Position numbers and translations under genes: made by a program. This document shows, in pieces, positions 2,208-34,228 of a stretch of 49,697 nt of DNA. Source of the stretch: a phage. How positions within the stretch are numbered: the stretch's first letter is position 1; the number at the start of each line of letters is the position of its first letter. The notes beneath the pieces were generated by a model that saw only the letters and a list, made by a program, of their open reading frames with translations, did not search any database and had not been told where the DNA came from. The stretch lies in the NCBI GenBank assembly GCA_026165385.1, contig GCA_026165385.1_4524.2, one strand, 5' to 3'.

Positions 2208-2552
2208 ATGAAAGGTAATGTTTACTTAGTAGTTCATGATTTAACGTTTTATTTTAACGAACATGATACAGTTATTTCAGACCGATTGATTAATTTGTTA
2301 TACCAACATGCAGATTACATCTATGTTCAAAATGAATTCGGCCATTGGAAGTTCATTAAAAACCGTTCCGGGTTAACTAGTTTTGAATACTTTGATCGTA
2401 AAGACCTTTTAAACGAAATCCCATTGCAACATCGGTTCCAGAAACGCGAATCATTATATTATTGCCGTCATATACCAAACGCCGAATGTGTTAATGAAGC
2501 GATTAATCTATGGGGACGGCGTCGAGAGCAAATTGATGATATGCCAAAATAA
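2208..2552 (+). CDS. Hypothetical protein, 114 aa
   Basis: ATG at 2208 after SD GAGGAAAA; the track ORF start at 2160 would overlap tRNA-Arg, so the downstream ATG is preferred. Confidence 0.55.
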   Translation: MKGNVYLVVHDLTFYFNEHDTVISDRLINLLYQHADYIYVQNEFGHWKFIKNRSGLTSFEYFDRKDLLNEIPLQHRFQKRESLYYCRHIPNAECVNEAINLWGRRREQIDDMPK

Positions 2553-2863
2553 GAAGCCGGGTCGCTACCGGCAAGTCGTCGGACTGATGTTCCCTGAGTA
2601 AGGACTGGTCTTAATAAATCTTTATGATTTGTTAATATCCCCTTACATCACAGCAGAAACGGCGCACAGAATTATCGATTCGAGGAAATATCTTTGCCGT
2701 AAGCCGAGTAGCGTTTTTGACGGAACGTTCGGATATGGACGAGATATGGCCTTTTAAAAATATTGAGTAGCGTCAACTGCTTGATAACCGGGTTCAAATC
2801 CCGGCGTTTCGTACAAACACTTGCCTTAGCAGGTGGAACCCCGACAAGGTTGCCGCAAGGCTT
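2553..2863 (+). ncRNA. Structured non-coding region, possible stable RNA(s) or degenerate tRNA
   Basis: About 310 nt with no credible + strand ORF in a dense genome; hairpin GCCGG/CCGGC at 2558-2574; canonical tRNA T-arm CCGGG-TTCAAAT-CCCGG at 2788-2804; no full cloverleaf found. Confidence 0.3.
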
Positions 2864-2891
2864 AGCCCCTTCCTTACGGTTGGGGCTTTTT
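2864..2891 (+). terminator. Rho-independent terminator
   Basis: Stem AGCCCC (2864-2869) / GGGGCT (2882-2887) followed by a T-run. Confidence 0.6.
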
Positions 2892-2936
2892 GGCATAATA
2901 ATAAATAGATAAGTTAATTAACTTAGGAAAAGCAAC

Positions 2937-3401
2937 ATGAAATCATACGCTGAATTTTTGACTGAACAATCTAGTTCAGATGTAAAAGCCGCTGCGATTG
3001 CAGCAATTCAAGCAGGTAAATATTCTTACAAAGACGCCTCCGATGAAGAACGTTTCCGTTTTATTAGAGATTTTAAAGCCGAAGGTTTTACTAATGCTAA
3101 TACTGTTAGCCGAGTTTTTAAAAGCCTAGCTGCATCAGGTGAATTGTTCCAGAAAGCTACAGGTAAAGCACCTGTGCCAAAAGCGGACCATAAAACAGCT
3201 CAAGAAAAAAATATCGCCAAAGGAATTATTTCTAAGTATGAAGCAATTCTTAAAGAGCTTTTAGTAATCAAAACAGAAGGCCAGAAACTGGCACGAGCAC
3301 ATAGTTTCAAAGATAATCCTCACGCTCATAGCCTTGAGTATGTTGAAGATATCCAAAAACTTATTAAAGACCGCATTTGGTCTGCTAAACAAATCAAATA
3401 A
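2937..3401 (+). CDS. Internal protein-like (capsid-targeted) protein, 154 aa
   Basis: N-terminus MKSYAEFLTE matches the capsid targeting sequence pattern with an L-x-E cleavage-type site; SD AGGAAAAG upstream. Confidence 0.7.
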   Translation: MKSYAEFLTEQSSSDVKAAAIAAIQAGKYSYKDASDEERFRFIRDFKAEGFTNANTVSRVFKSLAASGELFQKATGKAPVPKADHKTAQEKNIAKGIISKYEAILKELLVIKTEGQKLARAHSFKDNPHAHSLEYVEDIQKLIKDRIWSAKQIK

Positions 3402-4120: not shown

Positions 4121-4189
4121 GGTATCTAGGCCTTTCCTCTCCCTGCCCTAGAATTCCCCAGAACTTTTTAAAAATTTTTTCACAAAACT

Positions 4190-4220
4190 GTTTACATCCC
4201 TGTTCTTCCGTGGTACTATA
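4190..4220 (+). promoter_or_regulatory. Early (sigma70-type) promoter
   Basis: GTTTAC at 4190-4195 and extended -10 TGGTACTAT at 4211-4219. Confidence 0.45.
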
Positions 4221-33682: not shown

Positions 33683-33927
33683 TTAGTTTAGATTCAAAGA
33701 AGGTTGTTCTAACCCTTAAAGTTAATGACGAGCGACCGGTATTCGTTACCATTTCCGATTTGTATGTTGAAATTGCTAATGGCGTTCGTACTTATCAAGC
33801 AAATAAAACTCATTGGGATTATATCCCGATGTTGACGCTTACTCAGCGTTTAGAATCAATCGGTCTTAAAGACCTTTCAGTAAGTGAAGTGAATTTTATC
33901 AAACGCATTGTATCAATCAACCTCTGA
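33679..33927 (+). CDS. Hypothetical protein, 82 aa
   Basis: ATGA overlap with the upstream gene. Confidence 0.5.
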   Translation: MISLDSKKVVLTLKVNDERPVFVTISDLYVEIANGVRTYQANKTHWDYIPMLTLTQRLESIGLKDLSVSEVNFIKRIVSINL

Positions 33928-33934
33928 GGTACTT

Positions 33935-34228
33935 ATGGGTAAAACATATCGTCGTAAAGATTTGAAAGTTCGCGATTACGACTATTTTGGTAAGCGTAAA
34001 GCTCCTGACGGTGTTAGCCACAAAGACATGGTTGAAAACATTTTCCGCTCAGATAAATGGAAACGTATGAAAGGCGTTGATTCTGAAGTCAAGAATGAAA
34101 TGAATCGACAACTCCGCAAAGAAGTTCGTAAGTTGAAAAAAGATGTTTACAGTAAAGAAGATTATGATTATAATACTTCTCATACTGAAGCCAAACGTAA
34201 AGCTAACGAATGTTATCGTTACAGTTGA
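33935..34228 (+). CDS. Hypothetical basic protein, 97 aa
   Basis: ATG at 33935 after SD TGAGGTA; Lys/Arg-rich. Confidence 0.5.
   Translation: MGKTYRRKDLKVRDYDYFGKRKAPDGVSHKDMVENIFRSDKWKRMKGVDSEVKNEMNRQLRKEVRKLKKDVYSKEDYDYNTSHTEAKRKANECYRYS

Follow-up and report, generated by a model that had tools for sequence, protein, structure and literature searches.

Orthologues of the T4 stable RNAs rnaD and rnaC in an RB69-like phage, and a comparative fold that models rnaC as a partial tRNA mimic

Bacteriophage T4 produces two small stable RNAs, species 2 (rnaD) and species 1 (rnaC), which have been known since the 1970s. Species 1 RNA needs RNase P; processing of the pair has been attributed to RNase P or RNase III, and to self-cleavage of their joint precursor, species 2 plus species 1. 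On the T4 reference genome (NC_000866), rnaD ('small, stable RNA; species 2 RNA', 71053–71171) and rnaC ('species 1 RNA', 70908–71046) are annotated on the strand of tRNA-Arg and downstream of it. An older T4 record (X03016) carries the same two RNAs, followed by a hairpin labelled as a potential terminator, and gives rnaC a length of 137 nt compared with 139 nt in NC_000866. In a T4 transcriptome study RNAC was seen on Northern blots, and both RNAC and RNAD were assigned to the late RNAs (PMC9697503). Their function has been stated to be unknown in 2010 (PMC3014915), 2022 (PMC9697503) and 2025 (PMC12685909), and none is assigned in the literature that we searched. The T4 element is a textbook feature, and an orthologue in an RB69-like phage is both expected and already known; here we describe such an element together with a comparative model of its fold.

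The window analysed, a stretch of 49,697 nt of phage DNA, belongs to an RB69-like T-even phage of the genus Mosigvirus. Positions 2400–3000 matched 725 phage records by megablast, the top matches (98%) being the RB69-like Mosigvirus phages BEU50, a20, O157 typing phage 3, ATK47 and SA79RD, and a comparison with 5,426 complete E. coli genomes showed no similarity to host DNA. Homologues of trna.4, trna.3 and trna.2 are followed by tRNA-Met (2035–2109, + strand) and tRNA-Arg (2113–2189, + strand), both called by ARAGORN and by Rfam RF00005 (59 and 71 bits), then by a 114-aa open reading frame of the RB69ORF150c family (phrog_3355; 345 nt, 2208–2552, + strand, ending at the TAA of 2550–2552), the 310-nt stretch studied here (2553–2863), a terminator and further small ORFs. 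T4 lacks a counterpart of this 114-aa ORF, and its rnaD begins 1 nt past tRNA-Arg, whereas in the window, as in its Mosigvirus relatives, the ORF intervenes between tRNA-Arg and rnaD, which starts at the stop codon of the ORF. This is a difference in context and leaves the homology of rnaD unaffected.

We conclude that the stretch very probably comprises the RB69-group orthologues of T4 rnaD and rnaC, followed by a conserved 3′ trailer and the operon terminator. Orthology and synteny with T4 are both evident, as positions 2553–2900 align colinearly with the rnaD–rnaC–trailer segment of T4. The rnaD orthologue (species 2 RNA, ~2549–2668, + strand) is 85.1% identical to T4 71053–71171 (103 of 121 aligned positions), and that of rnaC (species 1 RNA, 139 nt, 2675–2813, + strand), assigned by homology, covariance-model match and covariation, is 96.4% identical to T4 70908–71046 (134 of 139 positions), the transcript ends of both RNAs being transferred from the T4 annotations. 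The trailer and terminator together are 88.6% identical to those of T4, and rnaD and rnaC are separated by 6 nt in both phages. As in T4, rnaC lies at the 3′ end of the tRNA cluster, in the orientation of the tRNAs, with the conserved trailer and terminator behind it; its five substitutions relative to T4 all fall in helices or in the T-loop, and the 114-aa ORF upstream sets the two loci apart. A covariance model of rnaC (R1) gave 160.5 bits at 2675–2813, its sole significant match in the window, compared with 162.9 bits for T4 itself. A 58-nt oligonucleotide from the probe template of the published RNAC Northern blot is identical to 2675–2732 of the window (PMC9697503). At least 80% of the rnaD–rnaC unit is present in 680 phage records; rnaC is annotated at the equivalent site in the record of Mosigvirus ATK47, and both RNAs in that of RB27. 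An earlier sequence-only reading had favoured stable small RNAs of the T4 type, and the orthology to T4 rnaD, rnaC and trailer supports it in this; the identity of the RNAs and their fold are close to certain.

That reading had also taken the stretch to be structured, and so it proved: MFE z-scores against dinucleotide shuffles lie between −3.8 and −4.4 (−4.4 for 2549–2895, −4.0 for rnaD at 2553–2668 and −3.8 for rnaC at 2675–2813), and the helices carry compensatory changes. The 5′ end of rnaD forms a 5-bp hairpin, P1 (GCCGG-GUCGCUA-CCGGC, 2556–2560/2568–2572, + strand), whose pair 2556–2572 is A-U in 11 homologues, G-C in 2 and G-U in 2. This is the hairpin that had been noticed after the upstream stop codon, rightly so although it was placed at 2558–2574 and not at 2556–2572; all coordinates given in the earlier reading agree with the sequence to within 2 nt. 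The remainder of rnaD is modelled as an irregular rod on the + strand, with an invariant closing helix of GUCGUCG (2575–2581) with CGGCG (2660–2664) and AC (2666–2667), compensatory pairs at 2588–2655 (U-A in 8 homologues, A-U in 6) and 2598–2646 (G-C in 6, A-U in 6), and a lineage-variable terminal hairpin (~2603–2640). Three sequence forms, unrelated to one another and all drawable as hairpins, are found at the tip of the rod among T-even phages. It is here that the window departs from T4 rnaD, with which it shares a conserved 5′ domain, closing helix and 3′ segment.

The 3′ trailer (2814–2863, + strand) folds locally into a run of small hairpins, T1 (2818–2824/2829–2835), T2 (2837–2840/2848–2851) and T3 (GCC-GCAA-GGC, 2852–2861), and is nearly invariant from T4 to Dhakavirus, T3 being ACC-CUA-GGU in JS10-type phages. 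It leads into the intrinsic terminator of the tRNA/stable-RNA transcription unit (2864–2891, + strand), which was read directly and folded, and which bears out the expectation that the region ends in one: a hairpin at 2864–2887 (2864–2869/2882–2887, with inner CC/GG pairs at 2872–2873/2878–2879) precedes a U-tract running to 2891. One pair of the terminator stem is C-G in 10 homologues and G-C in 5, and a simple terminator scanner missed the hairpin because of its internal U.U mismatches. Its homologue in T4 is the hairpin labelled a potential terminator in X03016.

The fold of rnaC was derived from 29 distinct homologues drawn from GenBank phages, IMG/VR and metagenomes and spanning the genera Tequatro-, Mosig-, Karam-, Winkler-, Kanagawa- and Marfavirus. 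All are 138–141 nt long, even though the sequence of the central part is unrelated in three lineages. In the 29-sequence alignment, which was fitted to the model, 96.2% of cells hold standard pairs and 25 of the 46 pairs change on both sides; none of 500 shuffles reached these values, and sliding the partners by 1–3 columns reduced pairing to 36–46%. A MAFFT alignment of 18 rnaC sequences gave the same picture, with 97.7% paired and two-sided changes at 19 pairs.

In the resulting model rnaC is a tRNA mimic of four arms around a four-way junction. Its ends are predicted to form a 7-bp acceptor stem including two U.U pairs, with CGAUUCG (2676–2682, + strand) as 5′ strand and CGUUUCG (2805–2811) as 3′ strand. 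Pair 2678–2809 is A-U in 12 homologues and G-C in 17, the other four standard pairs are invariant, and so is the tandem U.U (2679–2680 opposite 2807–2808); the 5′ strand falls at the mature 5′ end that is annotated for T4 species 1 RNA. In place of the D-arm there is an arm 1 of ~70 nt (2683–2752, + strand) built from five short helices, P2 (2683–2685/2750–2752), P3 (2689–2693/2742–2746), P4 (2698–2701/2734–2737), P5 (2704–2707/2729–2732) and P6 (2712–2715/2724–2727), and capped by the terminal loop UUUGACGG (2716–2723, + strand). All four P6 pairs and seven of the eight P4/P5 pairs show two-sided changes across the 29 homologues, and the Kanagawavirus, Karamvirus (VPA32) and Marfavirus versions of arm 1 are unrelated in sequence and equal in length. 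An A-rich single-stranded linker, UUUAAAAA (2753–2760, + strand), with an AAAA core invariant in alignment A3, joins arm 1 to arm 2 (2761–2786, + strand), which occupies the position of the anticodon arm and consists of a 10-bp stem (2761–2770/2777–2786), 8 of whose 10 pairs change on both sides, and the 6-nt loop CGUCAA (2771–2776). The T-arm (CCGGG-UUCAAAU-CCCGG, + strand; stem 2788–2792/2800–2804, loop 2793–2799) is the one already recognised at 2788–2804 from the sequence, as we could confirm. Its middle pair, 2790–2802, is U-A in 14 homologues, G-C in 13 and A-U in 1, and its loop is tRNA-like in most lineages and UGCAUGC or UGCAUC in two. The molecule is flanked by a 6-nt spacer that serves as its 5′ leader (GAAUUA, 2669–2674, + strand, from the alignment to T4), A-rich and with U or A immediately before the acceptor stem in all lineages, and by a conserved 3′ tail after the acceptor stem (2812–2816, + strand), which is UACAA in most lineages and the NCCA-like UCCAA in Marfavirus-type homologues. 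Since two lineages have lost the T-loop consensus and rnaC lacks a D-loop, mimicry of tRNA is limited to the acceptor/T-arm helix.

The loops of arms 1 and 2 are complementary to one another. The hexamer UUGACG of loop 1 (2717–2722, + strand) is the exact complement of CGUCAA in loop 2 (2771–2776); loop 1 is invariant apart from A2720 and loop 2 varies at 2773 only, so that five of the six possible loop–loop pairs are invariant and the sixth, 2720–2773, is A-U in 23 homologues and G-C in 6. Both loops stay constant in KLB31, VPA32 and L214 while the stems below them are fully replaced, as in the IMG/VR locus L214, where the entire arm 2 stem has been exchanged and the loop kept. This pattern suggests a 6-bp kissing contact between arms 1 and 2, the two hexaloops touching so as to lock the extra arms of rnaC together. 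The six G-C cases (UUGGCG/CGCCAA), from Klebsiella phage EI and five metagenomic relatives, are all of Marfavirus type, and the switch from A-U to G-C therefore counts as a single event in evolution. An identical pattern would arise from an inverted repeat at the DNA level or from contact between two molecules, and in phage VPA32, where the complementarity of the loops extends to 15 nt, an extended duplex is also possible. IMG/VR pattern scans, a metagenome scan and distant BLAST searches returned no further divergent rnaC lineages beyond about six enterobacterial T4-like ones; with a loose IMG/VR pattern, 4 of 100 screened loci were real rnaC.

Two separable modules make up the locus. In Dhakavirus JS10 and five IMG/VR relatives rnaC is absent and rnaD is fused straight to the trailer, the junction lying exactly at the site of rnaC and its flanks (~2672–2817); conversely, no rnaD was detected near rnaC in the tRNA arrays of four genera. 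Because of these two arrangements, rnaC is an independent cassette, and rnaD with the trailer is a second unit. In Karam-, Winkler-, Kanagawa- and Marfavirus, rnaC follows one tRNA by 5–7 nt and precedes the next, if there is one, by 5–9 nt, a spacing that matches that between the neighbouring tRNAs of these arrays. Karamvirus myPSH1140 has rnaC between tRNA-Trp, 6 nt upstream, and tRNA-Gly, 5 nt downstream; Winklervirus Virsaitis27 leaves 8 nt between the end of rnaC and tRNA-Trp, and in both Marfavirus EI and Kanagawavirus Q7622 a gap of 6 nt separates the start of rnaC from a preceding tRNA-Met. A tRNA-like sequence of 131 nt that lies beyond the 3′ end of rnaC in Kanagawavirus was set aside, its fold having z = −0.3 against shuffles and no Rfam match.

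Given this tRNA-like spacing, the leader and tail and the acceptor/T-arm minihelix, release by the enzymes of tRNA maturation is plausible and the most economical explanation of how rnaC would be made. rnaD and rnaC would be transcribed as the tail of the tRNA transcript, from which the tRNA-processing machinery of the host would excise rnaC, with RNase P cutting at the 5′ end by reading the acceptor/T-arm minihelix and endo- or exonucleases trimming the 3′ end; cleavage around rnaC would also free rnaD and the trailer. Against recognition by tRNA enzymes stand the loss of the T-loop consensus in two lineages, the lack of a D-loop partner and a tail that is mostly UACAA and not NCCA.

The first alternative to weigh is that the stretch acts only in cis, as a 3′ untranslated region of stabilising and terminator hairpins that yields no trans-acting RNA. 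Its position directly past a stop codon and before a terminator would suit such a role, as would the small hairpins of which the trailer is a series, and in the RNAalifold consensus the 5′ region of rnaD (2555–2581, roughly its first 29 nt) can pair with the trailer. All pairs of that duplex, however, are invariant or show one-sided changes, and compensatory change favours the competing local P1. The T4 counterparts follow a tRNA and not an ORF and accumulate as discrete stable RNAs, in other genera rnaC sits in the middle of a tRNA array far from any terminator, and the interior loops are conserved beyond what mere stability elements need. We therefore regard a purely cis-acting region as very unlikely.

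The sequence-only reading had left room for a decayed tRNA, in which the T-arm would be a functionless remnant drifting neutrally. A tRNA-like T-arm and acceptor stem within a tRNA cluster could be seen that way, and neither ARAGORN nor Rfam calls a tRNA here: searches with ARAGORN and with Rfam 15, the latter both at the gathering threshold and with E-values of up to 10, found nothing beyond the two tRNAs, and the Rfam matches within the stretch are at chance level (isrK, E = 0.41; the T-arm of mascRNA, E = 4.3). The silence of both programs arises because no family has been built for rnaC or rnaD. The proposed check with covariance models thus did come back empty in the stretch with Rfam 15, but this refutes nothing where no Rfam family exists. 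Decay is contradicted by a length held at 138–141 nt across at least six genera, by the compensatory changes at 25 of 46 pairs and by the conserved loops; the broken helices, length drift and missing compensation of a tRNA pseudogene are not seen in rnaC, which is moreover kept while the adjoining tRNAs and ORFs differ and from which T4 makes a stable RNA (PMC9697503). A tRNA pseudogene is accordingly a highly improbable description of rnaC.

Hardly more credible is the specific fold that had been drawn for the T-arm, a 92-nt tRNA-like unit (2721–2811) in which CGGAACG at 2721–2727 would supply the 5′ strand of the acceptor stem for CGUUUCG at 2805–2811. The two strands are where they had been placed and are complementary in the window, allowing seven consecutive pairs, and the record of Enterobacter phage KKP_3262 contains a similar 96-nt 'tRNA-Phe(gaa)' call from a tRNA finder. 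The helix nevertheless fails the test of covariation. Its pair 2723–2809 turns from G.U into A.C in 9 of 18 homologues, it shows no compensatory change, and in Kanagawavirus KLB31 the 5′ strand has been replaced by unrelated sequence while the 3′ strand is unchanged. The rival pairing with 2676–2682, by contrast, co-varies and fits the mature 5′ end of T4 species 1 RNA, so that the conserved partner of the 3′ strand is 2676–2682. The 'tRNA-Phe(gaa)' of KKP_3262, which covers the 3′ part of rnaC, is probably a product of this mis-fold.

That the region encodes small proteins can be dismissed, although ORFs of 42, 49 and 74 codons are present (candidate frames 2629–2757, 2763–2912 and, on the minus strand, 2896–2672) and many related GenBank records annotate two to four 'hypothetical protein' CDSs, since no frame is kept among close relatives, where stop-free stretches of 40–90 codons come and go, in keeping with the earlier judgement that there is no credible + strand ORF, substitutions compensate RNA helices, phages without rnaC lose the middle of all frames, and curated records of the T4 family annotate RNAs instead.

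Returning to rnaC as a structured RNA, its modelled form can be set beside several known molecules. It shares with canonical tRNA (RF00005) a 7-bp acceptor stem adjoining a 5-bp T-arm with a UUCRAAU loop, a four-arm junction and tRNA-like spacing in tRNA arrays; unlike tRNA it has no D-arm, D-loop or variable region, its 'anticodon' arm is a 10-bp stem with a 6-nt loop in place of a 5-bp stem with a 7-nt loop, its acceptor stem carries two U.U mismatches and its tail is UACAA and not NCCA. As in the tRNA-like domain of tmRNA, the 5′ and 3′ ends pair into an acceptor stem that adjoins a T-arm, with a long helix in place of the D/anticodon part, but rnaC has no tag reading frame, pseudoknots or CCA end and is only 139 nt long, and an ARAGORN search for tmRNA was negative for it. 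Bacterial YrlA-type RNAs, mascRNA and the tRNA-like RNAs of gammaherpesviruses are handled by tRNA-processing enzymes. By analogy, rnaC resembles these and the Y-RNA-like YrlA group in being a small, stable and partial imitation of tRNA, and such non-decoding tRNA mimics are most plausibly the class that it works like. It differs from them in having no sequence or covariance-model similarity to them, only the 17-nt T-arm having matched mascRNA (E = 4.3), and no Ro/Rsr-binding stem was found in rnaC.

T4 remains viable on laboratory hosts when its entire tRNA region is deleted, and whatever rnaC and rnaD do would therefore be conditional. The one hint at a function comes from the T4-like phage BW1, in which a single convergent SNP in rnaD, the one mutation common to three independently evolved lines, raised growth on E. 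coli ECOR34 (PMC12685909). We offer two proposals: (i) both are structured protein-binding RNAs, rnaC a non-decoding tRNA decoy for a host or phage factor that recognises tRNA, and rnaD a host-specific determinant of fitness. This reading is put forward on the strength of the BW1 SNP, the tRNA-like design of rnaC, its conserved loops and the lack of a conserved frame, and we hold it tentatively, as possible and somewhat unlikely; under it, rnaC and rnaD would be neither messengers nor decoding tRNAs nor classical base-pairing sRNAs; (ii) rnaC is a mobile tRNA-mimic cassette whose kissing loops resemble a codon and an anticodon, and intercepts or senses a host factor that targets tRNA, an antiphage nuclease for example, with rnaD a separate determinant of host range, at which the BW1 SNP hints, and the trailer and terminator (2814–2891) giving rise to a third, so far overlooked, tRNA-size small RNA derived from the 3′ end. 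The triplets concerned are GAC in UUGACG and GUC in CGUCAA, which change together to GGC and GCC in Marfavirus. This more elaborate proposal seems to us doubtful.

What is new here is the corrected fold, the separability of the modules, the candidate loop–loop contact, and the combination of a gap in Rfam with frequent mis-annotation. Rfam 15 holds no family for rnaC or rnaD, and in most of ~950 related phage records the region is blank or filled with spurious CDSs or a false tRNA-Phe; a covariance model for rnaC and rnaD would mend such blank or wrong annotations. The comparative fold offers a concrete and testable model, with its U.U-containing acceptor stem, its complementary loops and separate modules of rnaC and of rnaD plus trailer. 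Taken with the convergent rnaD SNP reported for growth on ECOR34, it points to a possible role for these RNAs in the interaction of T4-like phages with their hosts.

Homologues of rnaD and rnaC (the orthologues of T4 species 2 and species 1 RNA) are annotated as RNAs in only a few GenBank records, namely T4, RB27, RB7, ATK47/48 and Aplg8. Across homologues of window 2553-2900, many related records cover the two RNAs with CDSs for a 'hypothetical protein', between two and four per record, and others leave the region unannotated. The record of Enterobacter phage KKP_3262 carries a 96-nt 'tRNA-Phe(gaa)' at positions 576-671 of the homologous locus L091 (OK210076.1 56865-56960), an identification that we reject, as this feature is actually the 3' two-thirds of an rnaC homologue (L091 531-670). 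The call relies on a non-conserved acceptor pairing, identical to the one proposed for the window in the sequence-only reading. The tail downstream of the rnaC acceptor stem reads U-A-C-A-A in every lineage other than the Marfavirus-type phages, where the stem is followed by U-C-C-A-A, i.e. a discriminator base and an encoded CCA (L088 716-723; also L103, L138, L147, L220 and L226).

Further tRNA-like sequences lie close to rnaC in other phages. About 10 nt downstream of rnaC, Kanagawavirus-type phages share a conserved 131-nt sequence (L090 about 666-796; the same in L006, L008, L014 and L017), whose ends, GAUUUGU and ACAAAUC, pair in the manner of an acceptor stem, and which carries a T-arm-like GUAGG-UUCGAGC-CCUAU. 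Neither ARAGORN nor Rfam called this sequence, and its MFE was no better than that of shuffles (z = -0.3). In Erwinia phage Virsaitis27, the 84-nt gap separating tRNA-Ile from rnaC (L004 1422-1505) terminates in ...CAGCTCCCACCA. It resembles a further tRNA-like unit, uncalled by ARAGORN and unannotated in the record.

Elsewhere in the window, a match to the rnaC covariance model on the minus strand at 33840-33960 was weak (13.6 bits, E = 0.59) and was treated as chance. Read on the minus strand, the 5' hairpin of rnaD (2556-2572) is followed by TTCTTATTTT and was flagged as terminator-like; as there is no gene upstream of the hairpin on that strand, this signal is probably incidental. A near-identical pair of motifs, TTTTCACAAAAC[A/T]GTTTACAT, occurs at 160-190 and 4170-4200; in T4 the motif is found beyond the trailer region, on the minus strand at about 1690-1715 of L003. 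Those in the window may be T-even promoter sequences.

In the Dhakavirus-type phage JS10 (L007 1496-1700), rnaD is joined straight to the trailer, the conserved segment 3' of rnaC, at the junction ...GGCGCACAGAA|CACTTGCC..., and the same fusion is found in L025, L069, L070, L077 and L086. A further rearrangement at this junction is present in L022, an IMG/VR contig of 170,336 nt, where the sequence downstream of rnaD is unrelated and contains two GC-rich hairpins ahead of an ORF, and where the covariance model found no rnaC. Judged from the Dhakavirus-type fusions, with their clean absence of rnaC, this RNA looks like a cassette that has been precisely gained or lost.
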